Positions 1,846 through 61,032 of a stretch of DNA of 64,000 nt are shown piece by piece. Under the pieces are notes generated by a model. That model saw only the letters and a program-made list of their open reading frames with translations, was not told the origin of the DNA and did not search any database. This DNA is from Nemertoderma westbladi (lineage: Eukaryota > Animalia > Xenacoelomorpha), in NCBI GenBank assembly GCA_032718475.1, contig JAUCBJ010005165.1, positions 12,075 to 76,074 of the forward strand. Reading direction: 5' to 3'. Position 1 is the stretch's first letter. Each line of letters begins with the position of its first letter. A program made the translations under genes and the position numbers.

Positions 1846-3099
1846 TTTATTAAGGTAGCTAGTGTTTTTTTTTCGTTTTTTTTTTTCGTTTTTTTTTTGG
1901 TTGGTTAACAATATGTTTTTATAATTTCAAAATATACTAGCTAAAAAAAAATACGCTTGATATTTAAAAAAAAACACTAGCTACAATTAAAAAAACATCT
2001 GCTAATGTTCCAGGACATTCACCAATATTAAAAAGACAAAAATAAAAAAATAATAAAGTACAAAAAAATAATAAAAATTAAAGATTTTGAACAATTCCCT
2101 AGCTACCATAATAGCTAGTGTTCTAGAACAAATTTTTTATTGTAAAATGTTGAAATAATGTCTACATGATATTTACAATAATGTAAATCAAAGATAAATT
2201 GTAAAAAAAAATTTAATTTTTTAAATATAGGGTGGAAACTGCAAAAGTACCGGATATGCAGGTTGTCTGGTATGTTTGTGCACATTAATCCCCTGGGATG
2301 GTCCTGACTGTATATGGCTCTCTCCCAACCCTGGTCATTATGATTGTTTATATATTTCATGTGGATATGGTGGGTGGGTTTGCCTAGATGCATTCATTTA
2401 TATTATATGCAGTATAATTTATTGGATTATGTTTAACTGCTTTGTGTTATAATTATAATTTTCTATTCCAGTTGCTATGTGATGTTGCATAGAATCTGGT
2501 GGTGGGTTAGGCCTATCTACATAGTGTAATCTATCTGAATAGAATGGCCTAGCCTCTGTATTGATAGTGTCATATTGCTGCATGGGCTGCATGCACCTGG
2601 TATAAACTCAGACTCCTACAGTACCAATATAAGCCTATAAGATAGTTTCCTAGCTACCAGTAGGTATGGAACTACATCGGAGTTTCGCCATCGACCTCAT
2701 CTTTCCCCGATTTCGGTGGCATCCCTAGGCTCAGACCTAATGCCTACCGTAGTTGTTTGCTTGTTATATTGCACATTGTTTTCTGTACAATTTTCTACCT
2801 TATGTTTGTGGGGTTGCTGGTGTAAAAGATGTAAATAAATCCCCATTTAGAATGACTCACCAGTGATCTGGGGGGTCATTACAATCAATCTAGGTTGAAA
2901 TGAGTCCACCGTTTGAAATGAATCCCTTCAAAGATATCCATAGGTTAAATAGTAACCTGCACTCTTAATAAGATGTGATTGTTTATCTATGAATGTATCT
3001 GAATGTTATACTAGAAGGTCATGAGAAAGCAAATAAATTGGAGATGAGCTGTTGCAACTGTAATTAAAGGTGTAATATTATGGGTTTGTTCAGAAGTGG

Positions 3100-3200
3100 A
3101 AAAAATGGGAGCGCGTCACCGGGGGTTGAACCAGCGCTATACGCACGTTTCGGCCTAACAGGCCTCATCAGTAGCGCTAACCAGCTCAGCCACTAGCCCC
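3100..3200 (-). promoter_or_regulatory. tRNA-type internal Pol III promoter (A box, B box) and T6 terminator bracketing the hammerhead; repeated at +340, +680, +1020
   Basis: A box TGGCTGAGCTGG (3192-3181) fits TRGCNNARYNNG. B box GGTTCAACCC (3132-3123) fits GTTCRANNC. TTTTTT at 3105-3100. 5' end GGGGCTAG resembles a tRNA start. Confidence 0.7.
3133..3178 (-). ncRNA. Minimal type I hammerhead ribozyme, copy 1 (intact core)
   Basis: Minus strand reads AGCGCTA CTGATGA GGCCT-GTT-AGGCC GAAA CGTGCG TA TAGCGCT: stem I, CUGAUGA, stem II, GAAA, short stem III, and GUA cleavage triplet (cut between 3140 and 3139). Confidence 0.92.
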
Positions 3201-3472
3201 TGACACTCGCAGTCCCACCTAATCCACTTCTATTGAACGGGCAGTCTTAAGTTGCAAATATTCTATCTCTAACAGCGGACCTAACGGCCTCAAGTATGCT
3301 AGAGTGAAACAGGAGGGAAGTACAAATAAATAAATATTCAGCCCGGTATTGCTGCCAGGTGATATTAATTAAATAAATTAGAGATGAGCTGTTGCAACTG
3401 TAATTAAAGGTGTAATATTATGGGTTTGTTCAGAAGTGGAAAAAATGGGAGCGCGTCACCGGGGGTTGAACC

Positions 3473-3518
3473 AGCGCTATACGCACGTTTCAGCCTAACA
3501 GGCCTCATCAGTAGCGCT
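3473..3518 (-). ncRNA. Hammerhead ribozyme, copy 2 (closing pair of stem II changed to G-U)
   Basis: Same as copy 1 except plus-strand g>a at 3492. Confidence 0.8.
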
Positions 3519-3812
3519 AACCAGCTCAGCCACTAGCCCCTGACACTCGCAGTCCCACCTAATCCACTTCTATTGAACGGGCAGTCTTAAGTTGCAAATA
3601 TTCTATCTCTAACAGCGGACCTAACGGCCTCGAGTATGCTAGAGTGAAACAGGAGGGAAGTACAAATAAATAAATATTCAGCTCGGTATTGCTGCCAGGT
3701 GATATTAATTAAAAAAATTGGAGATGAGCTGTTGCAACTGTAATTAAAGGTGTAATATTATGGGTTTGTTCAGAAGTGGAAAAAATGGGAGCGCGTCACC
3801 GGGGGTTGAACC

Positions 3813-3858
3813 AGCGCTATACGCACGTTTTGGCCTAACAGGCCTCATCAGTAGCGCT
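3813..3858 (-). ncRNA. Hammerhead ribozyme, copy 3 (G12>A, predicted inactive)
   Basis: Plus-strand c>t at 3831 turns GAAA into AAAA. Confidence 0.75.
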
Positions 3859-4152
3859 AACCAGCTCAGCCACTAGCCCCTGACACTCGCAGTCCCACCT
3901 AATCCACTTCTATTGAACGGGCAGTCTTAAGTTGCAAATATTCTATCTCTAACAGCGGACCTAACGGCCTCAAGTATGCTAGAGTGAAACAGGAGGGAAG
4001 TACAAATAAATAAATATTCAGCTCGGTATTGCTGCCAGGTGATATTAATTAAATAAATTGGAGATGAGCTGTTGCAACTGTAATTAAAGGTGTAATAATA
4101 TGGGTTTGTTCAGAAGTGGAAAAAATGGGAGCGCGTCACCGGGGGTTGAACC

Positions 4153-4198
4153 AGCGCTATACGCACGTTTCGGCCTAACAGGCCTCATCAGTAGCGCT
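4153..4198 (-). ncRNA. Hammerhead ribozyme, copy 4 (intact core)
   Basis: Identical to copy 1. Confidence 0.92.
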
Positions 4199-4484
4199 AA
4201 CCAGCTCAGCCACTAGCCCCTGACACTCGCAGTCCCACCTAATCCACTTCTATTGAACGGGCAGTCTTAAGTTGCAAATATTCTATCTCTAACAGCGGAC
4301 CTAACGGCCTCAAGTATGCTAGAGTGAAACAGGAGGGAAGTACAAATAAATAAATATTCAGCTCGGTATTGCTGCCAGGTGATATTAATTAAATAAATTG
4401 GAGATGAGCTGTTGCAACTGTAATTAAAGGTGTAATATTATGGGTTTGTTCAGAGTTCAGAGAGAGGGTTCATGAGAAAGCAAA

Positions 4485-5420
4485 GCAGTCGACCATGCCC
4501 TAGCAGCATACTTGGCTTCAGTTTGCCAGTCCGACCCATTTGTATCACAAATCCTCCACCATAGAACACTAAACCACCACATAGTCCCATCCCTCCAGTC
4601 TCTGGCGCAATCTGCAAATGAACCACAATGGACCACCCTCGATGTTCTCACAAGCCCAGGTACTCAATGGAAGCTATCCAATGCTATTGATCTGAAACTC
4701 CATGAGCAACAACTGTCCCACGCCCCAGACACTCTGTCAACACTCACCAACTCAACATCACTGGCCCACCCTGGTGACTGGCTGCCATGTGAAAGCCTTG
4801 GGCTTCACTTTATGGTATGCCTCTACTGGCTCGTTGTCTGCATGGTCTCTGGCCCATCCCCTTGTCCTATATGCCTATCACCGGCCGACCAAATAGGAGA
4901 CCACCACATAGGATGTAGTGGTGATGGGGACAGAATCTCATGCCATGACTCACTTCAGGATGCAGTCCTCTCAACAGCCCAATCTGCTGCTCTTGCGCCC
5001 GAAGTGAAGTCCCTGGCCTGATACCAGGTTCCTGTAGCAGTCCAGCAGACATCTTCATCCCAAACTGACAAGGAGGCCACCCAACATCCCTGGACATAAC
5101 AGGCATTTCCTCCCTCCAGACGAGAGCTTCCGCCACCCCAGGACATGCATTATCCATCGCATACGACTGCAAGACAGCTGCCGACATAGAAGAGTGCCGC
5201 AAGAGTCTGGAGTTTGCTTTATTCCCCTACCAGTGGAAGCCCTGGGTGGTTTGCACCCTCATGCCTCGGCCACTATGCGGGAGATAGACCGTCTCCAAGG
5301 TCTCAGGCGAGGTATTCCCTCAATGGACTCCACCCGCCACATGTTCCAGCAGTTATCCTTCACGCTCTGGTGGGGAAACGCCACAATGTGGTTACGACAG
5401 GGCCAGGTTTTCCCTTCAGT
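4485..5420 (+). mobile_element. Degenerate C-terminal part of a CRE-like (restriction-like endonuclease) non-LTR element
   Basis: KAVDHALAAYLAS, CPIC..DQIGDHHIGC zinc knuckle, RISCHDSL, SPADIF, LDIT and FIPLPVEALGG across frameshifts. Confidence 0.7.
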
Positions 5421-5930
5421 CCTGCAAAATAAATATGAGGGACAAAGTTTTCGACGAAATAAAATATTTTATAAAAACTCGTATATAACCAAATGATGTT
5501 GGAAGTGACAAAGGTAATAAAAGATCTAATTTCCATAGAGGAAATGCTTATAAGATGAACTTGATTCAGATGATGTTTTACTAAGAATTATTGGAAAAGG
5601 ATTATAATTAAAAAAGTATGCTGCATTGAGAACCTGGAGGAACAAAAAATTGGAATAAAAGTATTTCATGAAGGCAATGAAATTAGTGGCGAAGCCAACA
5701 ACGCACTGGCAGGGGGAGAATGGAAAATTGTTGCAAGAGGTGTGTTTTTGGTGGTCAATGCAGTCCCATGATAAAAAAATTAAATTATGTTGAATACTGA
5801 TAACTGAGGAATAGTAGACCTATAAGGGGATTTATTTAAACCCGGAGACATCTTTTAAACCTGCAATAGTTTGTATTGAATCCCGTTGATCAAGGGTTTC
5901 ATTTAAAACTAGGTTGTAATTAATTGTTAG

Positions 5931-16059: not shown

Positions 16060-17094
16060 GTAAGTTAAAAAGATATGATCTGTACCAAAACTCAAATAAG
16101 AAAAATCGGATACCTAGGGGGTTAAAGAAGATAATGATAATCATGATAAGAAATAAGATATAAATAATAATAAACTTTACTTGTAATTAATGGTAAATAC
16201 AATGGGCAATGTATAGTATAAATACATGTCCATCGTTCGTGGGGCCTTCGGATGAAGTAAGGTAGTTTATCATATGGGTACCACTATTCCAAACATTGCC
16301 CTCTCTACCTGGAGACAGGAGAAATGCGCGAACTGAGACTCGAGTCATTTGCTAGACTACATTTTCGAAAAACTACATACCAAGTTTGAAATTATTTCAT
16401 TAATTAAGTCTTTAGGCTTCAAACTACTGGATCTTCTATATTTTCTACACACATGTTTATATATGATATGGTCAAGCTCTAGACATAACATTATCCTTTA
16501 TATTTTATCCCCACTTTATCCTTTATTTTATCAGCAAAGAATATGTGTAACAATGCCATTGATAATGACTGCAACATTGTAACTGAAAAGTGCGAAGAAA
16601 TTCAAACATATTTTCGATATAAATGTGTTGGTATGTATTGGAAACATTTATATGTATAATATCTGTATAATAATCTCAAATATCTGTATAATTATATACA
16701 TCAATTTACATATGGGTTGCTCATTTTAAAAATGGTATTATTTGCATTACAAATTTAAGTGATATTTGAGGCGTTTAAGAATAGGTCTATTTGTATTTAC
16801 CATGTCTACTATACGGTGCGGTGTGGGGGAATCAAGTCATCCTTCAATACAGGCCATGCAGCTTATATGTAGGGAAAATTAGCTTAGAAGGCAGAAAGTT
16901 TCTGTATTGCACACTATTACAGTAGTACTAATAGCACAGTGCTGGTTGTTGATGTTAGACTAATTGATTGACAGATTGTATTACTTTAATTAGTTAGTTA
17001 GCTTTAATAAAAACAAGATTTGTTTATATAGTATTACCTAAGACTAATGTTTCATAATCTCGGCTATAGCTGATCGAAATACGACGCCACTCAG

Positions 17095-20000
17095 AACCAA
17101 ACCCCGTAAAGGTTGATCTTGCAGCTCAGTGCATGGGTGGTGGAGAAATGACCCCCACAACCCTCGCACTTCTCGGGGAGACCTGGTGGGGTGAGGCCGT
17201 CCTGGAGGGACAGGTTGTCCCGGAACTCCTCCGGACTGAGGTCGGTGGAGTCAAGGACACTCGGTTGGGCGGTCAGCCAGCCCCCGGTCTTATTGAGAAC
17301 CGCCCGTGTCGCGGTTCGCTGTTGGTCAGCTGGTAGCGCCCCCAATGCTGCCTCCCGCTTCTCCTTGTAGGCAGAGTCCTGAGACACCCGGCTCTCGCAG
17401 AGTACATGTCGCATGGTGGGGTTCCGCAGGCCAATGCCACCATGGCGAGCTGGAAGAAGAACCTGCTCCTCATCAGCCGAACTGAGTAGGCTTCCAAATA
17501 GGGTGGGGATGTATCGCCGGAGGAGCGCAGTCCGGATCGGGGTTACCTCTTCCACGTCTGTGGGGACAACTCGCAGCAGGTAGTCCCACTCTGCCTGTAC
17601 ACAGCGGGACAACCCAGTGTGTGCCATTTGGGGGAACTCCGTAGCGACTTCCGCGAGTTTGTTTATGCTGTCCACCCACCCGGAAACCTTCTCATCAACG
17701 AACTCCTTGAGACCAGGGTGCTCCCCGATGTAGCCACCGAGGAATCGGTGTCCCTTCACTATGTGGACTCCGCTAGCACCAAACATTGCCTCCGCATCAG
17801 CCTCCCACCCCGGCTTGACGATGAGATAGCTCTTCGTCGGCTCGGGGATGTATCCGATGCTGGGGCCCACCTGGAGGAGCTCTGACCACCATTCCCAAAT
17901 CCCAGACAAACTGCCCACCGAGGAGGCATCATCGGCGTACCAGTATTGGCATTGCGATGGGATGGTGGGTTGTGCTGCCTGGTCGTCGTGGAGTGACAGT
18001 TCAGAGTCTGGTGACGTCGCCGTTGGTTTGGAACCTGACTCGATCGACGGGTGGCAAAGCCGATCCATTGGGTGGCGGCCCAGATTCAGGGGGTGGCGAA
18101 CCGGCAATACTGGGTTGCAAACAGGGCTGGATCCATGACGAACTGGACTCACCACATGGTGACTGTGTCACAATGGGTGGTGCCAAAACCAACTCGCTTA
18201 GTGGTGAACCAAATCCACTACGTGGTGAACCGTATTCGCTGGGCGTTGGTGAACTGAACTCGCTGGGTGGCTGAGAACCCAACGATAACGCAGGTCGGGG
18301 AGAACCGGGTTGGATGGGTTCTTCTGGGGCCGACGGGGATTGCACCTCGCGCAACTTCCGGACCACGGGCAGGGTCCCGCAGCCATATCCCTACATCGCG
18401 AGGGGGTCGCCCTGAGGCCAACCCTCTTGGCTCCACAAGGGGGCGGAGGAACCAGACAGATAAAGGGCGGCGTGCCCATTGTAGGCATTGAAGAGGAACC
18501 TCGAGCACCTATGCCAGTAGACCCGGCAATTCCACAAGGCGACGGGGTGACTCAGGCTGTTGAACGTGTTGCGTGCATCCACCAGCAACATGGCCTGAGT
18601 AGACTCTTCGTCGAACAAGGAGGACATCGCATGGACGGCGCCCTCAATGCCGGCCTTCACCCCGACACAAAGCTGGTCCGCCCCACACTGGAGAACGATG
18701 TCCGATTTCGTTGCCATCACCATACAGTTCGCTAGGAGGCGGTAGAGCACCTCGCCAACTCCGATTGGGTGGACCCTGGGTTCCTTGACTAGTGCTACAA
18801 GACGACATGCGCAAAGTGCCCGGATCTCACCCCATGGCACGATAGAGTTCAACAAACGATGCGCCAAACTAGCGACGGCCTCGCGCAGCTGGGCGCTGTG
18901 GTTGTCGTACCGAGTCAGCAGAGTGTGCCACAGCTCCGCGTCGCCTCCTACCGGACCGGAGCTTCCCTGGAGAGCACGGGCCGCCTTCAGAACATGCTGT
19001 CCGGTAACATCAACGCTCTCTAAAGGAGGGAGGTTTACGCAGAGGTTGAGGACAGAGGGAGAAATCGTCATCTGAGGAGGGTGTTTCTCTTCCAGGGCGT
19101 CCCGGACTGTAAAACCCGGGGGTTTACCCTCGGCTTGGGCGTCGGGGTCCAGTCATGCAGGTCCAGCCCCCGTCGTGCTCCGTCAGCATCCGGACTGCGG
19201 ACCGGTTCATCCCGGCGAGGACCTTCCGGTTGAAGATCCTCGCAGTGTTGGCTGGGGCCGCCCCTCGGGCCGTGGGGAACTTCGAGTTGCAGCGCTCCGC
19301 CTCCGCCAGAAGGGCCTAGAATTCCCCGCACTCCCACGCCCTCAATCGTCTGAGGACAAGCCGCCGGACGTCGGGGCTCTTTGCCACGTCCGGATCTCTC
19401 TGAAAGACCATGGCGACTAGGCACATTGGGCGTTCGGACCGACAATCTCCCGCCGCAAACTTCTCCATTTCTTGGGCGAGGAGGTCAACGACCTTGCGGC
19501 CCACATTGCCTCTGGGAACCACGTACTGGCGGCTGGGTAGTTGAGCTAGTAGGCTATGGCGTCTCTTCCAGGTTGGGTCGGTGGACGAGCCTGGGGAGTT
19601 AAGCCAAACACCCTCAAAAGCGTCTTCTAGAACCTGGGAAACTGATAGGGGGCCGTAGCTGCCGTCACCACAGAAACGGTTGAGTTAGTGGGACTACCTG
19701 GACTACCAGTGGTACTGCTAGAGTGTACTGCCTGCGAACCGGCGGGACGCAGTGTCTGTGTCAGGTAAGGGTAACTCTCATCCCCCACGCTTTGGGAAAG
19801 CGGATCAGGGACCAAGGTGGCGTCCGGGTCGACTAATGCGTTTGTTGTAGTACCGGTAGCTGATTCCGGGTTCTTGCAGCCGCTGGTTGACATGGGCCGG
19901 CAGTTATTGCACGGCCGTGACGCACGAATGCACCCACAGCGGCTGGTAGGGCCACAAGCGGAGACATCGCATTTGCAGCAACGTTGTGAGCTCTACAACA
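17095..20000 (-). mobile_element. CRE-like non-LTR retrotransposon, degraded, 3'-truncated at the zinc knuckle
   Basis: N-terminal Cys cluster (CCKC...CGC...PCNNC). RT motifs RLVALVK, PIGVGEV, LVDARNTFNSL, QGDPLAM, WYADD, FLGGYIG, HGGIGL. C-terminal CEGCG..THALSCK. GC-rich relative to flanks. Confidence 0.85.
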
Positions 20001-20210: not shown

Positions 20211-21558
20211 GGTAATGGTGAAAAATATCGAGACTTGAAAAATATCGAGAGTAAAAATAACGAGAGTAAAAATATCGAGAGTAAAAATAACGAGTGTTGA
20301 AAATTAACGTGATTAAAAAATATCGAGAGTAAAAATATCGAGTGTTGAAAAATATCGAGAGTAAAAATAACGAGTGTTGAAAAATATCGAGAGTAAAAAT
20401 ATCGAGTGTTGGAAAATATCGAGAGTAAAAATATCGAGTGTTGAAAAAAATCGAGTGTTGAAAAATATCGAGTGTTGAAAAATATCGAGTGTTGAAAAAT
20501 ATCGAAAGTAAAAATATCGAGTGTTGAAAAATATCGAAAGTAAAAATATCGAGTGTTGAAAATTATCGAGTGTTGAAAAATATCAAAAGTAAAAATATCG
20601 AGTGTTGAAAAATATCGAGAGTAAAAATATAGAGTGTTGAAAAATATCGAGTGTTGAAAAATATCGACTGTTGAAAAATATCGAGTGTTGAAAAATATCG
20701 AGTGTTGAAAAATATCGAGTGTTGAAAAATATTGAGAGTAAAAATATCGAGTGTTGAAAAATATCGAGAGTAAAAATATCGAGTGTTGAAAAGTAACGAG
20801 TGTTGAAAAATATCGAGAGTAAAAATATTGCATTTTACTTGAGCATTTTATTTAGAATTATGGAACAATATTGCAGTGCATGGGTTTCAACAGTGCAAGT
20901 GAATGACATTATGTAATACACCTTGGGTACCCATTTACCAGAATTATTATACTAGCTAGTTTTTGCTATTTTTTTAATAAATATAATAAAAGACGTGCTA
21001 GCTATAAATTTTGATAAATATTATAAATATTGTTAAATATTATATTAGAACACGTACTATAAAGCTACCAAATGTTGATAAATATTGTTGTTCTAGAACA
21101 TTTTTAGTAAAAAAAATTATCATACAACCCTTATTTAAAAAAATTGTTACTATCGATATTTTTCTCTCGATATTTTTCAACATTCTATATTTTTCAACAC
21201 TCGATATTTTTACTCTCGATATTTTTCAACACTCGATATTTTTCAACACTCGATATTTTTCAACACTCGATATTTTTACTCTCGATATTTTTCAACACTC
21301 GATATTTTTACTCTCGATATTTTTACTCTCGATATTTTTCAACACTCGATATTTTTACTCTCGATATTTTTCAACACTCGATATTTTTTACTCTCAATAT
21401 TTTTCAACACTCGATATTTTTACTCTCGATATTTTTCAACACTCGATATTTTTACTCTCGATATTTTTCAACACTCGATATTTTTACTCTCGATATTTTT
21501 CAACACTCGGTATTTTACTCTCGATATTTTTCATGTCTCGATATTTTTCAATATAACC
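20211..21558. mobile_element. Foldback element with long minisatellite-built inverted arms
   Basis: Left arm 20211-20830 is made of aaaaatatcgagtgttg / aaaaatatcgagagt units; right arm ~21150-21558 is the reverse complement. Flanks are cataatat (20203-20210) and cataatac (21559-21566), a TSD with 1 mismatch. Confidence 0.85.
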
Positions 21559-24361: not shown

Positions 24362-27356
24362 CCCTGTATGTCCCACTGAGACCTACAGGTAACAACTTCT
24401 ATTCTTCACTACTACAGCCGCGTTTCAGCATTGTGTGGTTTCTTGATTGGTTGCATGGGTTCATTTGTTATCCAAGTTACCCAATCAGCGTCATCTTGGG
24501 TCAGAGGCAATCTCAAACTGAATATTAAATCATTTGTGTCTCGTGGACAGAGTTATTCCAAGTAGTGTTCAAGTGCTGATTGTGCAATCCAAAAAAGCAA
24601 ATCGAGTGCAATTATTTGATTCAGAAAAATTATTTTGGTGAAGATTCATCATTATTTTACTTAATTATACCAAAATTGATGCAAGGTATAGTACTATGAA
24701 GAATTCACAGCCAAAATTTCAGTCGTTACTTTAGGGTAACGGTGGGCCACTCTGACATCACTTTTTGTGCTAAATGTGAACTGGTCAATAAATTGATATA
24801 CAATACTCTCTTATGATTCCACGTTGTTTTGTACACCTAGGTAAAGAATAAGTTTGCTGACTAAACTACTAAATATATTATTATAAATAGATATTAATAA
24901 ATAGTCGGAATATTCAATAAATAGATAGAAATGTTCGTATTCTCTGTACAGCTGTGCGTAAGTTACACTGTAGAAACGTATTTGATGATATGGATACTGG
25001 AAAATTTTATGGAACACATTATAAAAACTCTCATGTTGAGGTGTCCATACCGTCAGATGATAGCGACGATCAACTGATGAGTGATTCTGGCAGCGAGGAT
25101 GATGCATATGGTGATACAAACTGGAGTGATGAAGGTGATGACTCTGACGAATCAGACGAACGCGATGATGACGTCATTATAGAGTTCGAGGAAATAGAGG
25201 ATGTACTAGCAGATCCAACGATCAATACCGATGATGAGAACATACAGCCAAATCAGATAGAGGTAGATGCGCCAGGGGAGACAGTACATCATACAGAGGA
25301 CGAACAGAGTAGTGGTGGCGATGTGCAGGTCGAACCAAAGACAAACAAGAAATCTAAGAAGAATGTAGTCAACCGGAAGTATTATAGGACAAAGACGATT
25401 TCTGCAGAGCCGAAATGGCTGGGTAGTTTACCTGATGTAGATGATGTTCTAGAACCAATCAGATATTTCAAGAAGCTTCTCAAAGATGATGTGTTGAAGG
25501 AAATAGTTTTCCAGACTAATGTGTACTCTGCAGAAAAACGCCTTGATAAACAAATAAATATAACACGAAACGAAATTGAACAGTTCATAGGAATTTGCTA
25601 CTATATGTCTGTGTACGGTCTTCCTAGATGCAGATCATATTGGCAGGCCGGTACAAGAGTTGATAAAGTTGTCAACACAATGATGACGTGCAATCACTGG
25701 GAGAGTATAAAAAGAGATCTACACTTGAATGACAATAGTAAGCAAATCGCTAAGGGGTCTCCTGGGCACGATAAAATTTTCAAAATCCGACCACTGGTTA
25801 CTGCTCTCCAGACCAGTCTAAGAGACATTCCAAAGGATGAAGAGCTTTGTGTGGATGAACAGATGGTGCCATTCAAGGGGAAAAATAAAAGCGGAATAAA
25901 GCAATATATGCCCAAGAAACCAAAGAAGTGGGGCTATAAGCTGTTTGTTCTTTGTGATAGCCATGCTATGGCTTACGATTTCGATATTTACACGGGAAAG
26001 ATCGAACCGATTGCTGGACGGCCTGACATTGGGGTAAGTAGTAATATAGTAATTCAACTAGCTGTTGGCATACCTAGACACATGTCATACAAACTCTTTT
26101 TTGACAACTGGTTTACTAGTGTTATTCTCCAGGTGACACTGGCCAATGAAGGAATATATTGTCTTGGGACAGTCAACGAGAACAGATTAGGTGACTGCCC
26201 TCTGCCCACGGATAGCGCAATGAAGAAGAAAGGTCGTGGATACCATGAGGAACTGAGATTTACTGTAAAAGGAGTTGACTTGCGCATTGTAAAGTGGTTT
26301 GATAACCGTTGTGTTACTCTCTTATCAACATTCTCTTCCACGAATCCGACGTCTCTTGTAAAACGGTGGTCTAAACTAACTAAATCATTCATTGAAGTAG
26401 ATCGCCCACGTATTGTTGGCACGTACAATAGCTTCATGGGTGGGGTTGATACACTGGATTCTTTGTTGAGTTTGTATAGGATACGAATACGGTCTAGGAA
26501 ATGGTACCTTTGATTGGTCTTCCATTTCCTCGATTTTGTCTGTGTCATTGCTTGGCTCTTGTACCGACGTGACTTGCGTAGCTGTAATCCAGCACAAAAA
26601 CCAATTCCACTCCCTATTCAAGACGACATTGGCCGAGACCCTGTGTGCATGTGGAAAGTCTGTCTGCAACAAGCGACGAGGGCGACCAAGTCTAGAAATT
26701 GAAAACGGTATTCTTCAGAAGAAAGCGCGATCAATAACCGTTGGTCTGTTGCCTTCCATGGCAGTTCGACAATGGCAGTTGGCCACTGGCCTGTGTTCGC
26801 TGAGAAAAGGGGACGGTGCAAGAATCCAGACTGTGTTGGGGTTCCTAAGATTATGTGTGAGAAGTGTAGTGCGGTGTCTGGAGGAAAGGTATATTTGTGT
26901 CTTGGACTGGACCGTAACTGTTTCAAATGCTTCCATTGTGATTGATAACGAATTGGGTATCTATCAATTTTGGTAATTGCTATCGCATTGATGTTGAATT
27001 GATGTTTGGTTTTCGATATTACATACAGTACAGGGATACAATTTTAGTTGAAAATCTATAATTTTGTATATAATGTAGAGTGCGGAGCAGAATAATACAG
27101 TTTGTACATTTCTGCATATTTTACACATGAACACAAAATGAAAAAAGTTGTCGCATAATATGTTTCCAACTTTTTCACAAAATTTTTTTCAAACTCCTAA
27201 ATTTCATTTCTTAATGGCCCACCGTGACCCACCATCTTCATAAATTAAATATTTTGAAATTTTTTGATGAATATCATCTCATTAGGTTCATTTTAATGTG
27301 AAAGTTATGAAAAAAAAAATTTTGGGACATGGCATCATAATTCGGGCTATAGAGGG
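24362..27356 (+). mobile_element. Full-length piggyBac-family DNA transposon
   Basis: TTAA at 24358-24361 and 27357-27360. Termini CCCTGTATGTCCC and GGGCTATAGAGGG. Subterminal inverted repeat gggtaacggtgggcca (~24734) / tggcccaccgtgaccc (~27215). Confidence 0.9.
24990..26945 (+). pseudogene. piggyBac (PGBD-type) transposase, open for ~507 codons, then a TGA at 26511 and two frameshifts before the Cys-rich tail
   Basis: DDD motifs CVDEQMVPFKG, FFDNWFTS, YNSFMGGVDTLD. Acidic N-terminus. C-terminal GHWP..RGRCKNPDC..CEKC..YLCL..RNCF..FH in a shifted frame. Confidence 0.9.
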
Positions 27357-36539: not shown

Positions 36540-37210
36540 TGAGTTACTGTAAATGGCCCCACATAAGCATTAACTTTTCAAATATCATTAGGTGTAGTGA
36601 TACGAACGCCCAGTAGTGACTTTACTGCTTTCATATACAATGTTTCAATCACCTTGAAATCTCTGGTCAGCCACGACTCGCACCCATAGACTAACACAGC
36701 TGATAAGCAAGAGTGGAATACTTTCAATTTCAGGTGAAAGGGCATAGTACTGTTAACTGCACAAAATATGATAAATTTATTCACAGCGTCGTTACACCTA
36801 CTAACATGTAAATTTAAAATGGAGGACATTGCACCACTCTCGCAAAAAGGCGACCCTAGATACACATAACTGTAACAATGGTCTACAACAATATTTTTAT
36901 ACGACATCGGGAGTTTATCCGAATAGCTGCCATTTATTACCAAAAACCTTGTCTTTTTTGTATTTATTACCATACCGTATTCTGTACAGAAGTCCACAAG
37001 CACTCGAAATTTTGATTCGCAAGTAGCACGAGAGGTTGAAAGGATTACGGAATCGTCCATCAGTAATAGGATTTGTATAACACCCAGAAAACCATCAGTT
37101 TGAAAAGCATTTCTTAAATTCAGCACAAGTTGATTTAAATATACACAAAACAGGATGACTGACGAAGGGGCCCCTTGTTTTACTCCTAAACACGAGATTA
37201 TTATAGCGTC
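36540..37210 (-). mobile_element. LINE reverse transcriptase fragment
   Basis: GVKQGAPSSVILF, LLLMDDSVILS, INTKKT, YVYLGS, LVYGCESW. Confidence 0.85.
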
Positions 37211-37254
37211 ACGCAATATATATTTTGTACACGTATACATGGATTTGATTGATT

Positions 37255-38100
37255 TCATCTACAAGGTCAAGTGAGCTCAGGCAGTAGAAACGAGGTCTTC
37301 CCAATGCTACCTGATTCTCCATGGTTGTTACAATTTCGTTTCTGCCAAGTTCTGTATCCTTTTCAAGTAGGTCTATATATTTGTACAGCCAATCGACCAT
37401 GGCAAAACCTGCTGTCCTTGTTTCAGTTGCAAATAAAGTAGTTCTGGTATGACCTCATCTATACTTCTCCAGCAGCACCCACTGAATCTTAATCGGCATT
37501 CACATACTTGATACTGGTGGAATTGTACTATAAAGCTTTGATACGCATTGTCTCCAGTTAATGTTTAGTTCTCCCTTAGTTGTCTTTTGTAAAAACCATA
37601 AATTGGTTGGTTGTTCACAAGGTAAAAACCATAAATTGGTGGTTGTTCAAGAGTTTTTGTCTGTACTCAGGTCTCAAGATGACAGAAGTCATCCGCATGC
37701 TCAAGCATATCATCCTTTAAGCTTATGCTCATCCGGTCAGAGACTTGCTGAGGACTTGAAAATTTAACTGTCAAAATTGTGGTCTTCTTGGAATTAATAA
37801 AAATACCAACACTAGAAGCAGCCTGTTCTAATGAGCTGAGGAGCCGTTGGGATCCCTCCAGTGATTCTGAGAGTAGGCCCTACTCCTGAGTCATATAGAT
37901 ATAAAAGTTTTAGATCATTTAGGTATTTGACTGGATTTCCTCAACTTAATCTGGAGCCAATAGGTGGAGTTAACATACCCCATCATCATTATGATGATAT
38001 AAGTGTGAAGCTAATAGTCAACCACAATTATGGATCAAAATGGTGTAAGTGTGTCACCATGGAGGACTCCCAATATTACTTAAATTGATCTGTGTCATCA
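37255..38100 (-). mobile_element. Internally deleted RTE copy of the same family as 1-1845
   Basis: LEKDTELGRNEIVTTMEN matches LERDTELGRNEIATTMEN at ~1730-1780; nucleotide similarity runs to the 3' end. Confidence 0.7.
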
Positions 38101-42859: not shown

Positions 42860-43328
42860 AGAATATTTTATATCAATTGTCAACTTCTGACGAGTTTGCA
42901 CAATTTTTCGATGCTATATGGCTGAACACGAATGACGATGAACAATATCGTGGACTTACAGACGATGCTCAACCAGGCCTACCAGGAGCTGGTCCAGTCC
43001 ATAAAAGAGCCCAGAAAAAGGTGCAACTAGAGAGAATGCTTGGCTATATTGTATCGTATATCTGCAACTTGCAAATTTGTGATCAGTTACATCATACCGT
43101 AAGAGTCAGTAAAAGTGCTGCAGTCAGACAGTGGATGATGCTGGTGCGCTCAACCAGGCCTACCACGAGCTGGTCCAGTCCATAAAAGAGCCCAGAAAAA
43201 GGTGCAACTAGAGAGAATGCTTGGCTATATTGTATCGTATATCTGCAACTTGCAAATTTGTGATCAGTTACATCATACCGTAAGAGTCAGTAAAAGTGCT
43301 GCAGTCAGACAGTGGATGATGCTGGTGC
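42860..43328 (+). mobile_element. LTR-retrotransposon gag-like N-terminal fragment with a 181-bp tandem duplication (42967-43147 / 43148-43328)
   Basis: FAQFFDAIW..YRGLTDD..AQKKVQLERMLGYI resembles invertebrate LTR polyprotein starts (recalled, not searched). The duplication is seen directly. Confidence 0.5.
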
Positions 43329-43948
43329 AGTAGTGCAGGCTACAACAGACCTAGGCCTAAATATTTCCAATACTACATACTGTTATGTACTCTTATGTTT
43401 GTCGGATTGATATCACCCAAAATAATTAAAATATGATGATTCAAAAATAATTAAAAACTTTGTTTATGGTTCCTTCCCAGGCCAGCAATGCAGCATTATT
43501 CCACTGGGTAAGAAAGAGAAAGCTAAGTTTTTCCAGTTAATTTGAATAGAATTCTGATTCTCTTAGCACTGTCAATCAACTAGCTATTTTGAATAAATGT
43601 TTCCTTGACATGGGAGTTTATAAAACCTGTTTTGGAAATGACATCCTTTATTGGAATTCATATAGCTGAGCCTTATTTTCAATAACATGACCAGCTGATA
43701 CAGTTATTCTAAACTGATTTCATCCTACCAGAAACTGTAATGATGACCTTATAACATGTGATGTTACCCAGTTATTTAAAACGGATAGATTAAGCATTAA
43801 TTAAGCATACAATTTGTATTTATGTATTTGTACTATATAGTCTCCAAATCGATGGCGGCTGATTAGGCTCAAAATGTAATATATTCCTTATCAATGTAAT
43901 TTAACATGAATAAAAAATATTGAAATTATGTTCAATATATGTTGAATA

Positions 43949-45000
43949 TTTATTCAATATGTACTGACTATCAATTGAATATGAATTCAAAAAGTGTTCA
44001 ATATTGCACATTTATTCAATATGTACTGACTATCAATTGAATATGAATTGAAAAAGTGTTCAATATTGCACATTTATTCAATATGTACTGACTATCAATT
44101 GAATATGAATTGAAAAAGTGTTCAATATTGCACATTTATTCAATATGTACTGACTATCAATTGAATATGAATTGAAAAAGTGTTCAATATTGCACAATTA
44201 TTCAATATGTACTGACTATCAATTGAATATGAATTGAAAAAGTGTTCAATATTGCACATTTACTCAATATGTACTGACTATCAATTGAATATGAATTGAA
44301 AAAGTGTTCAATATTGCACATTTACTCAATATGTACTGACTATCAATTGAATATGAATTGAAAAAGTGTTCAATATTGCACATTTATTCAATATGTACTG
44401 ACTATCAATTGAATATGAATTGAAAAAGTGTTCAATATTGCACAATTATTCAATATGTACTGACTATCAATTGAATATGAATTGAAAAAGTGTTCAATAT
44501 TGCACAATTATTCAATATGTACTGACTATCAATTGAATATGAATTGAAAAAGTGTTCAATATTGCACATTTACTCAATATGTACTGACTATCAATTGAAT
44601 ATGAATTGAAAAAGTGTTCAATATTGCACATTTATTCAATATGTACTGACTATCAATTGAATATGAATTGAAAAAGTGTTCAATATTGCACAATTATTCA
44701 ATATGTACTGACTATCAATTGAATATGAATTGAAAAAGTGTTCAATATTGCACATTTACTCAATATGTACTGACTATCAATTGAATATGAATTGAAAAAG
44801 TGTTCAATATTGCACATTTATTCAATATGTACTGACTATCAATTGAATATGAATTGAAAAAGTGTTCAATATTGCACAATTATTCAATATGTACTGACTA
44901 TCAATTGAATATGAATTGAAAAAGTGTTCAATATTGCACATTTACTCAATATGTACTGACTATCAATTGAATATGAATTGAAAAAGTGTTCAATATATTG
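43949..45000. repeat. 62-bp tandem satellite, 17 copies
   Basis: Unit tttattcaatatgtactgactatcaattgaatatgaattgaaaaagtgttcaatattgcaca; first start 43949, last start 44941. Confidence 0.95.
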
Positions 45001-45329
45001 CGCAATTATTCAATATGTATTTATTCAGTATGGAATGAAAAAGTATTCAATTTGATTGTTTATTTAATCTATATATATAGTGTAGTTGCTCATTGTGTAT
45101 TGCGTATTTATTCAATTCAAATTGAAAACGTTTTCATGTGGGATCACATTCAGGTTCGCCAGCCTATTAATGTGATAGTAGCAGTCTCGGTTGAGAGGGC
45201 AGTTTCATGGCCTACTATATTTTTATTTCTTTCTTTTGATTCAGATAAACTGACAATAAAAACAATTATTTTAAAATTTAATTAAAAAATTATAAAATAT
45301 TTCTTGACATAACGGTACATCAGAACCGA

Positions 45330-53215: not shown

Positions 53216-54710
53216 ATCACTAGTAGAAGATAAGTCCATACTAATCCTAAAACCTGATAAAGGAAATGGTGTAGTAATTTTAAACAGGACCACATACATA
53301 GACAAGGTACTAGGAATTTTAAACAGGACCACATACATAGATAAGGTACTAGTAATTTTAAACAGGATCACATACATAGATAAGGTACTAGTAATTTTAA
53401 ACAGGACCACATACATAGATAAGGTACTAGGAATTTTAAACAGGACCACATACATAGATAAGGTACTAGGAATTTTAAACAGGACCACATACATTGATAA
53501 GGTACTAGGAATTTTAAACAGGACTACATACATAGACAAGGTACTAGGAATTTTAAACAGGACCACATACATAGATAAGGTACTAGGAATTTTAAACGAT
53601 AAAAGTAAATTTAAACGTTTATCAGACTGTCCACAAAAGTGGGTTGGGGGAGCAATTCGGTTAGAGGAACGTTTTAAGAAACTCCTCAAAGGTTTACATA
53701 AAACTTGGGACATTTCAAACAAGGAGCTCGAAACTCTTCTGCCAGTAGGAACACATCCAGGGATTTTATATGGCCTACTGAAGGTGCATAAAAAGGATTA
53801 CCCCATTCGCCCAATATTATCCGCCATATCATTCCTGGTTATAATCTGGCAAAATTTTTGGTAAAAAGGTTAGGGTCACTGGGTACTAACAAATATACTG
53901 AAGGGACACATTCTCCTTTGTGAGGGAAATAACTGACATTCAAAATGCCAATACCATGTACATGGTAAGCTTCGATATCAAATCACTGTTTACTAATATT
54001 CCACTGGACGAGACTATCGTCATCATTCTTACTCATTTGTTCCGTAACACAGACAAGGTCGATGGTCTAAACCGTAAGCAGATTAAGAGCAGACTAGAAC
54101 TAGCCATTAAATAATCTGAATTTATTATTTATGGGGTCAAATATAAACAGGTAGACGGTGTAGCTATGGGTAGCCCTCTTGGTTCTCTCCTAGCTAACAT
54201 TTTTCTTAGTTACCATGAGGAGCATTGGCTTGAAAATTGTCCTTCAAGTATAAAACCAATTCTGTACCGTAGATATGTGGATGACATTTTCTAATCATTT
54301 AAAGACCGCAGCCAAGCCGATCTATTTTTGCAATTTTTAAATACACAACATCGTTGCTTGGAATTTACCTCGGAACTTGAAAGCAATGGGACATTGCCTT
54401 TTTTAGATATTCTTATAACTAAAACTTGTTCAGGCCTCTCAACCTCCATTTACCGGAAGCCTACATTCACAGGTTTATACTCTAAATTTGATTCATTTAC
54501 ACCGCTCAAATTTAAAATAGGATTAGTAGTTACCTTGTTACATCGTACCTTTATGATCTGCTCATCTTGGATTAAATTTAACAGTGACTTAAGGACAATT
54601 ACACGAATTGTTAGCTAAAAATGGGTACCCTCGAGAACTATTATCATGGCTGACAGATAAACTAATTGTTAAACTTGTTGGTCCCAAACCGACCGTAGTA
54701 CATACAGTAA
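53215..54710 (+). mobile_element. Penelope-like element RT fragment
   Basis: ILKPDKGNGVVILN, LYGLLKVHKKDYPIRPILS, MVSFDIKSLFTNIP, QVDGVAMGSPLG, YRRYVDDIF, LPFLDI, IYRKPTFTGLY; several stops and frameshifts. Confidence 0.9.
53277..53598 (+). repeat. In-frame 39-bp tandem repeat (8 copies of ILNRTTYIDKVLG) inside the Penelope RT
   Basis: Unit aattttaaacaggaccacatacatagataaggtactagg. Confidence 0.95.
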
Positions 54711-56390: not shown

Positions 56391-58981
56391 ACAAGTTTTA
56401 ATTATTAACCATATTTCGTAAGATATATTTTAAAACATTTATTTATTAATAATGCAATAACTGAATAACCAGGATTAAATTTGAGGATAAAAGGATTAAA
56501 TTTGTACTCAATAATTCTGCCGTTTAATTACGTTTAGATCAATTAAAGACACATTTATTAAAGCAAATCACTTGAACTAATTAAAAACTATAATAGAATG
56601 GCGTATGTGGATTACATCTGTATAATTTTTAAGTATAATTATTTAAATCTTATACTGTAAAACAATTAATTTCCTTTAAAAGGCAGGTTGAAAATGGTGT
56701 TTTCACCGTAATCAACTTAATTAACTAATTAACTGCTATTATCTTAGCTTCTCGAAGGCCACACGGAAACGGAAATTCTACTTGGAAAATTTCTAAACTT
56801 TTGCCAAACAACATGTGTACCAAGTTTGGATAGATTTCATCAAAGATTGGCCGAGTTATTAACGTTTAAAATTGAACGCGACAGAATGACAGAACGACAC
56901 GTTCGTGGGGCCTTCGCGCAGCACGAGGCCCAGTTATGAGATACAAATTAAAATTGAGCGACTGTATCACAAAATCATGTTTTGAGAAATTTACCCACAC
57001 CACCAATCAATCAAAGAAAGTACGTGTTCACCCCTTTTAATCCCCCCCCCCCCCCCCACCCTTCCCAACCACCAATACATAACTGCGACATCTACCACCC
57101 ACGGAAGGGTAGCACGAACTTATTTCCAATCGCACGTTCAATATGCAAAGCCAGGTGGTTTATAGGAATATAATAAACGCAGTACTCGTTTTCATTATAA
57201 GCCTCGTTGCGTTCGTCCTGTTTTGTATTTAAATATATTTCTTAAACGCAGGCTAGGACGATCTTTATAATAATAACTAGAAAGCCTGTGGCCCTTCGGG
57301 CCACAGCTTTCTAGTGCACGTGCAGATGATATATGAATATGTGTGGGAGATTTGAGAACTGCATACGGAACAGACACCATCATTAAATAAAACACCACCC
57401 CCATAAGAGATAACTGTCAAGTTTCAACTTTAGGCAGATTGTAAATAACAAAATTTCCAGAAAATGATCACTTTCAGATCCACCCTCTACCTGCGGACTG
57501 GTGAAATGCAGACGGCACTGCAGTTTGGTAAAGATGGGGTTTATGGTGAAGTAAAATGCCTGCCTTTCAAGTTTCAGCTTAAACAGATTGTAAATAACAA
57601 AATTGGTGTAGATGTTCACATTCAGCAATTTCACCCTCTAGCGGTAGACTGAAGAACTGTAGACGACTCTGGGACTCCGTAAAGATACAGAATATACTGT
57701 AGTAGATTCCTGCCAAGTTCCAGCTCAATAGGATTAAAAATAACCAAATGGGATGAGGTGTTCACTATCAGATATTTCGTCCTCTAGCGGCAGATGGGAG
57801 GACTGTATACAACTCTGCGACTCCGTAAAGTTACAGCCTATGCTGTAGTAGATGCCTACCAAGTTTCAGTCTAAACCGTTAGTAAATAACAAAGTTGGAG
57901 AAGATGTTAACTGTCAGACATTTCACCCTCTAGCGGTAGACTGGGAAAGTGAATAGGATTCTGCAACTCCGTAAAGATACAGCCTATGATGTAGTAGATA
58001 CCAACCAAGTTTCAGCTCAAAATGATTAAAAAGAACCAAATGGGATGAGGTTTTCACTATCAGACAATTCGCCCTCTAGCGGCTGACTGTGGAACTGTAG
58101 ACGACTCTACTACTCTGCAAAGATATAGCCTATGCTATAGTAAATGCCTACCAAGTTTCAGTCTAAAAGGATTGTAAATAACAAAGTTGGAGGAGATGTT
58201 AACTTTCATACATTTCGCCCTCTAGCGGCAGACGCGGGTAATGTAGACAACTCTGCGCGACTCAGTAAAGATATAGCCTATGCTGTAGTAGATGCCTACC
58301 AAGTTCAGTCTAAATGGATTATAAATAACAAAGTTGGAGAAGATGTTAACTTTCAGACATTTCGCCCTCTAGCGGTAGACTGGGGAATTGTAGACGACTC
58401 TGCGACTCAGTAAAGATACAGCCTATGCTGTAGTAGATGCCTACCAAGTTTCAGTCTAAACGGATTGTAAATAACAAAGTTGGAGAAGATGTTAACTCTC
58501 AGACATTTAGCCCTCTAACGGTAGAATGGGGAACTGTGGACAACTCAGTGACTCCGGAAATATACATCCTATGCTGCTGCTGCAGTATATAGCTACCAAG
58601 TTTCAGCTCAAAAGCATTAAAAACAACCCAATGAGATCAGGTTTTCACTATCGGACAATTCGCCCTCTAGCGGCAGGCGGGGAACTTCAGACGGCTCTGA
58701 GTATTACGTTGCAACGAGTTAGGGCGAGACCTATCTAACGAGCTATAGTAAGCGAGATTTCATCGAGATTAGATGTATAATATTAGATAAAATAATAATA
58801 CAGTAATTAGGCCTACTGTACAAAAATAATTACTTTTAATATTCATAACAGTAAAACAAAAATGTTATAAACCTGTCCTTCCATGCATCCATTGATTGAG
58901 AAAGCAGAATTAGTCTTGGACAGTTCGCAACAGACAACCCATCCCAATCAACACTCCACCAGCCTGGCTTGCAACTTCTCT

Positions 58982-61032
58982 GGTAAACGGACAGGTTGTA
59001 TCCAGACAAGTTGTATCCAATTTCCTATTCTTAGCTTACAAAAGGACATTTTGTATCCCGATTTTCGGACATGTTGTATCCAACTTATTTACGTTGTAAA
59101 TTAACTGTAATTCTATCCTATTGAATAATATAATTAACTAGGCGATCCATAATCATAATACTGTACATTATACGATTAATTAGTTCAGAGCATTTCTTTC
59201 TTTCTCCAATCAGGATTTCTCACTTTAATAGCATTGTGTAATGGAGGTCAAACAAATGACACTGCATCATGAATATGTAGAGGAGGTCAAACAAATGACA
59301 CTGCATCATGAATATCAACTGTAAATCCATGTAGTAACAGTTTAATATTTTAGCGATCTCGATTATATGTTCAATTTGTAAATTACATTTTAATTAATTA
59401 ATTTTTAGTTATTGTACCAATATATTCTTCCTTGTATCAAAAAACTCCATGGCCGTGTATCAAAAAACTATACACGGTAATTCTAAACTTTGCCATGATG
59501 GCAAAATGTATTCCAAACGGAAAACCAACAAGGATGGGTCTGAAATGTGGGTTTGTACCAAACGACCCCACTGTATTGGTTCCGTAAAGACATTGACTCC
59601 ACACTCAACCGAAGTCATTACTAGTAATCCCCATAACTGTATCGATTCTCCGATTGTGGAATTGTCAGCATTCCGACAGAGAATAGCGGACCAGGCCTCA
59701 TCATCCCATACCAAACCCACCCAAATCTATTGTTCCTCACTTCGGGATCTTGATTCAAAGTTGCACACCAGTTTGCCGCAACGTTCATCACTGCTGCGGC
59801 AGATACGTCGTGTAAGATCACGCCACCTTCCCCCGGATCCGAAATCACTAAAGGAACTCTCATTCCATGGTGACTCCATCATCGATTTTATAACTTCAGA
59901 TAATGGAGGAAAGTTCCTCCAATATGACAATGGTGTCAATGCTGATGAGAGAATTGTGGTATTCTGGACCGATGAATCTATGAAATTTCTACGTAGTTCG
60001 TCAGAATGGGGAGTTGATGGCACATTTGCAATCGCTCCCAAACCGTTTTACCAGTTATATATAGTCTGTGCCAAGGTGTACACTCGTATGCTGCCACTGC
60101 TTTATGCATTTCTCGAATGCAAAACAGAAACTACTTACTCGGAGTTATTCAATGTGATCGCCATGCAAGGGGCTTCACCTTCGGTTGTCCACGTGGACTT
60201 TGAGAAGGCGGCACACAACGCAATCATTGCGGCTTTCGGCGACAGTGTGACGTTTGTTTTCTGTTACTTCCATCTCCGGCAAGCGATTAACAAGCGCATT
60301 CAAGAGCTTGGATTGAAATCTCACTATCAGTCCAATTTGGAGTTTAGGTTATGGGCCTCCAAGATTTCTTCACTTGCTTTGCTGCCAACAGATAAAGTGA
60401 AAGATGGGTTCCGCATAATACAAGACATTGCCCCCAGGGAAGGCGCCGAACTGTTAACCTACTTCGACCGAACCTATCTGAGTGGACCTCGACGTATTCG
60501 TAGCGACAGCAATGGCCTTGTCTCGAAGATACGTTCTGCGGGACCCTTATTTGCAGTTGAGAAGTGGAATGTTCATGCAGCCACATTAAATGACTTTGGC
60601 AGAACTAACAATGCTTCAGAGGCTGTTAATCGTGATATTTCTACCATTATAGGAAGTAAGCACCCTTCTGTGTGGAAACTTATTGATGCTCTAAAAGCGA
60701 AAGATGCTGATGTCCAATGTCAACTTGCTCGGGCCGCAGTTGGACAGCTAGAGCCACGTCGAGAAACTTTAGAATCTAAAACATTTGATAGACGCATAAA
60801 GACGCTCTGCACTGAGATTACCAACCAACAGCGCACTGTGGAGAGCTTTCTCATTGGTGTCGGCGAGAACATAGAGTTATTAAAGAGAAGAAAGACATTG
60901 TTTTCAAATATCAACGTAAGTGACTCTGAAATGGACAAGGACTTCAAATAACTCCGTGTAACATTTTGGCTAATAACTTTGTGTAACGTTTTAGTTTAGT
61001 TTTAGTAACAATGTTATCATGTATTATATAAC
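58982..61032 (+). mobile_element. Mutator-like (MULE) transposon inserted in unit 1, left TIR only
   Basis: Starts GGTAAACGGACAGGTTGTATCC with repeated ttgtatcc motifs. Absent from unit 2. Host sequence resumes at aataggccaattcg (~61033). Confidence 0.8.
59449..60951 (+). CDS. MULE transposase with FLYWCH-like N-terminal zinc finger, intact 500-aa ORF
   Basis: WVCTKRPHC...PHNC finger; catalytic WGVDGTF, HVDFEKA, FCYFH (CxxH), RTNNASEAVN; uninterrupted ATG to TAA. Confidence 0.9.
   Translation: MAVYQKTIHGNSKLCHDGKMYSKRKTNKDGSEMWVCTKRPHCIGSVKTLTPHSTEVITSNPHNCIDSPIVELSAFRQRIADQASSSHTKPTQIYCSSLRDLDSKLHTSLPQRSSLLRQIRRVRSRHLPPDPKSLKELSFHGDSIIDFITSDNGGKFLQYDNGVNADERIVVFWTDESMKFLRSSSEWGVDGTFAIAPKPFYQLYIVCAKVYTRMLPLLYAFLECKTETTYSELFNVIAMQGASPSVVHVDFEKAAHNAIIAAFGDSVTFVFCYFHLRQAINKRIQELGLKSHYQSNLEFRLWASKISSLALLPTDKVKDGFRIIQDIAPREGAELLTYFDRTYLSGPRRIRSDSNGLVSKIRSAGPLFAVEKWNVHAATLNDFGRTNNASEAVNRDISTIIGSKHPSVWKLIDALKAKDADVQCQLARAAVGQLEPRRETLESKTFDRRIKTLCTEITNQQRTVESFLIGVGENIELLKRRKTLFSNINVSDSEMDKDFK

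Follow-up and report, generated by a model that had tools for sequence, protein, structure and literature searches.

A retrozyme array of 4.18 units at positions 3034-4454 of the window (the whole 64,000-nt stretch of DNA analysed here) is a true insertion, and assembled public reads carry the same site in the empty state, with a single copy of the 15-bp sequence that borders the array on both sides in the window. The element is a metazoan non-LTR retrozyme, a known class, and the insertion is young and probably polymorphic. Our leading but tentative reading, which we regard as nearly an even call, is that a Penelope-type reverse transcriptase (RT)/endonuclease made it in a single target-primed event, beginning at a constant A/U-rich site within a 340-nt RNA ring and copying the ring for 4.18 laps. 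A circular template and the insertion of all four units at once are plausible.

The array, its junctions and the empty site

The array spans 1421 bp, corresponding to 4 x 340 + 61 bp of head-to-tail units. The unit is non-coding, with a longest stop-free frame of 56 aa. The array and its surroundings comprise the following features.

3019..3033, + strand: left-hand target-site duplication (TSD) copy; its 3' end is the putative primer; present as a single copy in the empty allele
3034..4454, - strand: retrozyme array, 4.18 units of 340 bp with 7 private variants
3130..3181, - strand: hammerhead 1, type I; core C3 at 3171, cut between 3140 and 3139, 2-bp helix III with a near-palindromic loop
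3470..3521, - strand: hammerhead 2, type I; the variant at 3492 (a CpG change) makes the closing pair of stem II a G-U wobble
3810..3861, - strand: hammerhead 3, type I; the variant at 3831, at the same CpG, is core G12>A
4150..4201, - strand: hammerhead 4, type I; intact
4382..4394, - strand: A/U-rich zone (register 3022-3034); site of priming-side ends and putative internal RT start
4455..4469, + strand: 15 extra nt at the RNA-5' junction, a 7-nt re-copy followed by a GA stutter; the empty allele lacks them
4470..4484, + strand: right copy of the TSD, matching the left copy by sequence comparison and by the empty allele
4476..5496, + strand: older, broken non-LTR relic adjoining the target, with zinc-knuckle and endonuclease-like motifs; outside the insertion

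The original prediction described near-identical units enclosed by a perfect 15-bp duplication, and we reproduced both at the coordinates given. The 15-mer TCATGAGAAAGCAAA at 3019-3033 is repeated exactly at 4470-4484, cannot be extended on either side and is absent elsewhere in the 64-kb window on both strands. The last 3 nt of the left copy match the unit, giving a 3-nt microhomology. As had also been proposed, the array begins and ends mid-unit (3034 and 4454), away from the ribozyme cut, and the extra nucleotides occur only at the end that is 5' for the ribozyme strand, where the first 7 of the 15 (4455-4469) duplicate the final 7 nt of the array. The priming end (3034) has neither a poly(A) nor a short-repeat tail. 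The units differ at 7 sites, every variant being private to one unit (0/7 common to two), and 2 of the 7 (3492 and 3831) fall at the same CpG. All four cut-site junctions inside the array are free of indels.

Five of the nine public runs listed contain part of the query, none of them recorded as RNA, a blank that we did not take as evidence; X1 and X2 represent one sample, and X3 comes from another study. A 606-nt contig from X1 aligns with 0 differences to window positions 2600-3033 (record 52-485) and 4470-4605 (record 471-606), and its two halves overlap by exactly the 15-mer. In X2, a 746-nt contig aligns to 4470-4605, and its sequence continues into window 2989-3018. Both contigs have one copy of the 15-mer, bearing out the predicted TSD; the 15-mer is therefore a true TSD and the extra 15 nt are not target sequence. 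A longer, imperfect TSD of 21-22 bp (pairing AGAAGG in the target with AGAGGG in the extra nucleotides) was dropped as the main reading because most of the extra nucleotides repeat the end of the array and the empty allele fixes the duplication at 15 bp. A 719-nt contig from X3 departs from the window sequence at 3033, just as the empty allele does; its right part is unmatched at 97%, and it was not counted as proof of the empty allele. Over the flanks, the X1 empty allele has 0 differences from the window in ~655 bp, versus 3 in 434 bp for X3. The sample with the empty site probably belongs to the same animal species as the window.

The filled right junction was found in 0 of 4 runs searched and is known from the window only, and the depth in bin 4466-4492 is that of the empty contig alone in X1 as well as X2. 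The X1/X2 sample may lack the filled allele; alternatively, if this sample is the source of the window and is heterozygous, the allele may have been lost in assembly clean-up. The missing filled junction would also suit an assembly error or a DNA-level capture, in which extrachromosomal repeat DNA patched a staggered break, as would the great abundance of the retrozyme family (2306, 1173 and 102 matching contigs in X1, X3 and X5, respectively). However, an exact 15-bp duplication together with 15 slipped nucleotides is beyond what an assembler would create, and the polarity of the junctions and the common start relative to the ribozyme (see below) point to an RNA template rather than captured DNA. 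We consider both explanations very improbable.

Ribozyme and element class

Each full unit contains a minus-strand hammerhead of type I, an assignment that rests on the script-read core motif and stems, with the cut between 3140 and 3139 (+340n). Core and stems are complete in three of the four units; the remaining unit has G12>A. The role of G12 in the hammerhead core is established, and from its sequence hammerhead 3 is predicted to be inactive through this change. Rfam gave no match in the array units at the gathering score, and a Hammerhead_3 match below threshold (E=0.46) in two of the four. Exact and degenerate hammerhead patterns retrieved 0 loci in viral contigs and metagenome contigs.

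Helix III has only 2 bp, with a computed energy of +2.4 kcal/mol as a hairpin and -8.8 as an 8-bp dimer duplex, a layout equivalent to the double-hammerhead design described in PMC4209133. The change 3144 C>T, the commonest allele in the DNA runs, makes the palindrome of the helix III loop perfect. When the whole array is folded at equilibrium, double-hammerhead pairing reaches at most 0.04, and the fold of the ring is no more stable than that of shuffled sequences (z=-1.2).

The retrozyme identity and the minus-strand polarity of the template, both part of the original prediction, are upheld. Metazoan non-LTR retrozymes are described as non-coding tandem repeats whose units measure 150-450 bp, with a hammerhead of type I, a GC content <50%, no LTR, PBS or PPT, and a TSD >4 bp (Cervera and de la Pena, 2020, PMC7229834; PMC7761336), and the element is alike in these respects. 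Rolling reverse transcription of a circle is the model proposed for them (PMC7229834; PMC7761336), and insertion of circle-templated multimers has been proposed already (PMC4209133; PMC7229834; PMC7761336). Neither the class nor the rolling model is new, then; the value of the locus lies in a footprint verified by an empty site, which tests the published models. In the open-access literature searched (the supplement of PMC7229834 apart), no paper was found that documents the empty site of a retrozyme multimer in an animal. The locus has an empty site and an RT start mapped to one internal zone, neither of which PMC7229834 is known to give, whereas expression and cleavage are predicted here.

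Two groups of vertebrate elements are also comparable. The newt satellite 2 and axolotl retrozymes (PMC7229834) have, by description, a ~330-350-nt unit, a short helix III and a predicted need for a double hammerhead; the host here is apparently an invertebrate. Vertebrate pLTR-derived retrozymes (Li et al., 2026, 10.64898/2026.07.22.740005) are likewise non-autonomous hammerhead tandem repeats; they are attributed there to the machinery of Penelope-type elements (PLEs), and most of their families have 7 units or fewer. A plant LTR retrozyme, with type III hammerheads in its LTRs and a 4-bp TSD, was rejected on the type I topology and the 15-bp TSD.

The helper of animal retrozymes has so far only been inferred, and local unequal crossover is an alternative route to their arrays (as presented in 10.64898/2026.07.22.740005). 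With a pair of empty and filled alleles, a start zone that has been mapped and a matching loop in what is probably an RNA run (see below), both template and helper become directly testable. If our preferred reading is true, the locus preserves a still-segregating trace, verified by its empty site, of rolling-circle reverse transcription in an animal genome, the template and helper of animal retrozymes would be identified, and satellite-like arrays could be born full-grown.

Start of reverse transcription and the template

We judged the ends of close copies by eye among 24 of 128 loose ends listed, a small, tool-selected sample. The 12 listed ends of the 'before' type comprise the empty allele (1), unit variants (7), an ambiguous case at 4381 (1) and foreign flanks (3). 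All three of these foreign priming-side ends (3/3 among those listed; 6 contigs) lie close together, at 4382, 4387 and 4388. In the same register the array itself starts at 4391-4394, so that the foreign ends fall within 13 nt of its own start; the post-hoc chance of such clustering is ~6e-5. The start zone is 106-118 nt past the cut site, and consists of one cluster and one start at the locus; a PLE (Penelope-type element) derivative would be expected to have starts at two sites, 30-40 nt apart, and inverted copies. On the opposite side, the foreign ends listed scatter (4188, 4360 and 4452, versus 4454 here). Left ends away from the cluster occur at 3120 and 3305 among the looser matches (18 of 545 listed) and at 4175 among the closer ones. 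From the same 18 of 545, two groups of 18 and 12 contigs end with low agreement at 3031, the edge of the query unit, which fits the start cluster with tandem variants mixed in. The permuted endpoints predicted from a circular template thus find no support in this sample on the priming side, where the ends of close copies cluster at 4382-4388; this end appears to have a constant position, 106-118 nt beyond the cut.

Six of the 15 joints listed in other family copies start at 3141-3144, which is 2-5 nt beyond the hammerhead cut. These joints may come from RT stalling soon after it has passed the cut site; run-off at a cleaved 5' end was rejected as their source on the same distance of 2-5 nt from the cut between 3140 and 3139.

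The internal start constrains the template. From that position a cleaved linear monomer offers ~110 nt, and the template was therefore a circle or an uncleaved multimer. Likewise, to make 1421 nt RT must have passed the cut site four times with no indel, which calls for a ring closed by ligation, a multimer left uncleaved, or four exact template jumps. In our preferred reading, array transcripts would self-cleave as double hammerheads, helix III being unstable alone and stable as a dimer duplex, and the cleaved monomers would be ligated into rings. A nick after 3033 would then prime cDNA synthesis through the 3-nt A/U match, 106-109 nt past the cut. RT would pass the ligated junction four times, stall within the long stem at 4454, slip back 7 nt and stutter, and a second nick 15 nt upstream would give rise to the duplication.

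Run X4, which is RNA by our guess and bears another organism label, contains a single 371-nt contig that forms a closed 341-nt loop with a 30-nt overlap. The loop differs from unit 1 by 1 substitution and 1 inserted base. It has the subfamily alleles of the array at 3144, 3209 and 3257, where 64-97% of the summed depth in the three DNA runs differs (summed contig depth is a rough allele share, not a copy number). The loop is a hint, but only a hint, of a 341-nt circular RNA, as a tandem transcript would assemble alike. At 3345/4365, one base is missing in all four units of the array and present in the X4 loop and many genomic copies; 340- and 341-nt variants therefore coexist.

The differences among units bear on the choice between ring and multimer. 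The array has 7 differences in 1421 bp compared with 0 in ~655 bp of X1 flank, giving p ~0.01 under equal rates and 0.04 without the CpG pair. Because a single ring would give identical units, the 7 differences count against a ring; unless X1 is itself the sample from which the window came, they fit a donor array whose units had diverged slightly, and RT errors or consensus errors could contribute to them. We also weighed a variant in which Penelope-type internal priming and one-step insertion are retained and the template is a linear multimer, left uncleaved, that was transcribed from at least 5 units of a donor array. The 7 differences, two of them at one CpG, against none in the flank of the X1 empty allele favour this variant, as does the 3492-type variant, which is common elsewhere in the family (in X1 and X3, 19-34% of the summed depth). 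The weak helix III would predict slow cleavage, and uncleaved RNA is reported as the main in vitro substrate of PAc, the Poseidon PLE of Anolis (PMC11167929). On the other hand, tandem hammerheads of this type cleave as dimers and their products accumulate as circles in coral, mussel and axolotl (as described in PMC7229834), and few long multimers should therefore stay intact. Changes at CpG sites, moreover, recur independently, and X4 yields one homogeneous loop without variants. On balance we find the linear multimer rather unlikely.

The empty allele fixes the ends of the insertion and not its unit count, which leaves room for 1.18 or 2.18 units having been inserted with the TSD and later grown to 4.18 by unequal crossing-over. 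The 61-bp terminal redundancy would permit such growth, and Li et al., 2026 (10.64898/2026.07.22.740005) discuss a route of local amplification. However, 0/7 variants are common to two units (a comparison of modest power), the insertion is so young that its empty allele persists, and RT must still have crossed the cut site once. While unequal crossover is discussed for the vertebrate arrays (10.64898/2026.07.22.740005), one-step insertion fits this locus better, and we think later growth quite unlikely.

Helper enzyme and other elements in the window

The putative tailless internal start resembles the internal initiation of Penelope elements (PMC11167929). PAc starts reverse transcription internally at +111-118 with its hammerhead cut at +26, i.e. 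85-92 nt past the cut, and leaves no tail (PMC11167929). More broadly, the likeness lies in internal starts ~85-130 nt past the hammerhead and the lack of a 3' tail (Frangieh et al., 2024, PMC11167929). PAc is unlike the retrozyme in that it is autonomous, starts at an AC-rich stem-loop that has no homology to the target, and favours cutting at ATT (PMC11167929), whereas the unit has no long ORF, a U-rich start with a 3-nt match and only one start at the locus. A PLE-type ATT cut motif is not obvious at the target. Three of the 15 joints listed contain a strand switch. Inversions are also made by L1 twin priming. Among PLE insertions, strand-switched or inverted copies are described as frequent (10.1101/2021.04.23.441226), and a link of animal retrozymes to PLEs has been argued (PMC7229834; PMC7761336; 10.64898/2026.07.22.740005).

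An AP-endonuclease LINE had originally been preferred as the helper on the length of the TSD. The absence of a tail and the clustered priming ends do not support this preference, and TSD length does not decide the matter. TSD lengths of PLEs are variable (10.1101/2021.04.23.441226), rotifer examples of 8-10 bp being shorter than the 15 bp here (PMC3846280), and TSD length is reported as variable in both LINEs and PLEs (PMC9977147); for this reason it does not discriminate between helpers.

A LINE of the AP-endonuclease type (RTE, CR1/L2) or another LINE could nonetheless have been primed by microhomology on the ring and rolled round it. The 3-nt A/U microhomology at the priming end and the LINE RT relics in the window would agree with this, and a 15-bp TSD with a messy 5' junction is ordinary for LINEs. 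Conversely, nicks made by L1 leave a T-rich primer end, and the primer end here is A-rich. The insertion is without a tail and has nothing in common with the 3' end of the RTE relic, its priming ends cluster at one internal site, and a PLE link of such elements has been published (10.64898/2026.07.22.740005). We judge a LINE helper unlikely. A LINE-mobilised SINE was rejected, there being no tail at 3034 and no match to the LINE ends of this window.

Candidate helpers had been noted within the window itself. RT relics are indeed present, but those examined are broken and none resembles the unit, and their presence is therefore uninformative about the helper. The RT fragments at 196-1672 and 36578-37258 match RVT_1 (Pfam); their clade names (RTE, for example) are our assumption. 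The first belongs to an RTE-like relic at 196-1845 with an RVT_1 match and a terminal (TAG)n tail. A relic at ~53.2-54.7 kb, which we take to be PLE-like, has a DKG motif, weak RVT_1 matches and HTH_animal look-alikes. As a copy of the helper it was rejected, being broken, without a hammerhead by scan and without similarity to the unit. The window yielded no autonomous PLE with sequence in common with the unit. After the DKG motif, at 53272-53597, lies an in-frame tandem expansion of 39 bp x 8.4 (a 13-aa repeat, 95% identity), possibly from RT slippage.

At least as far as 4605, the empty allele contains the relic to the right of the array. The claim that the insertion lies at the start of an older CRE-like relic holds as regards the adjoining relic; we presume the relic (4476-5496) to be CRE-like, but Pfam gave no match for it, and in Atlas it falls in unnamed clusters. 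A second non-LTR relic on the minus strand (17091-19152, GC ~58%), with motifs that we likewise assume to be CRE-like, has no tblastn match to it.

Several further repeats and transposons were observed. A near-exact 181-bp dimer occupies 42967-43328; neither a duplication at its flanks nor, by scan, a hammerhead was found. Inverted, facing arrays with a 17-bp period, similar to the ends of foldback elements, lie at 20219-20828 and 21153-21551. Two transposase frames are long and open, one at 24921-26513 (DDE_Tnp_1_7, 530 aa) and one at 59398-60951 (FLYWCH + MULE, 517 aa). A homogeneous 62-bp x 17 array (97%) spans 43948-45019, and three blocks of a 146-bp satellite are located at 57561-58699, 61752-62583 and 63697-64000.
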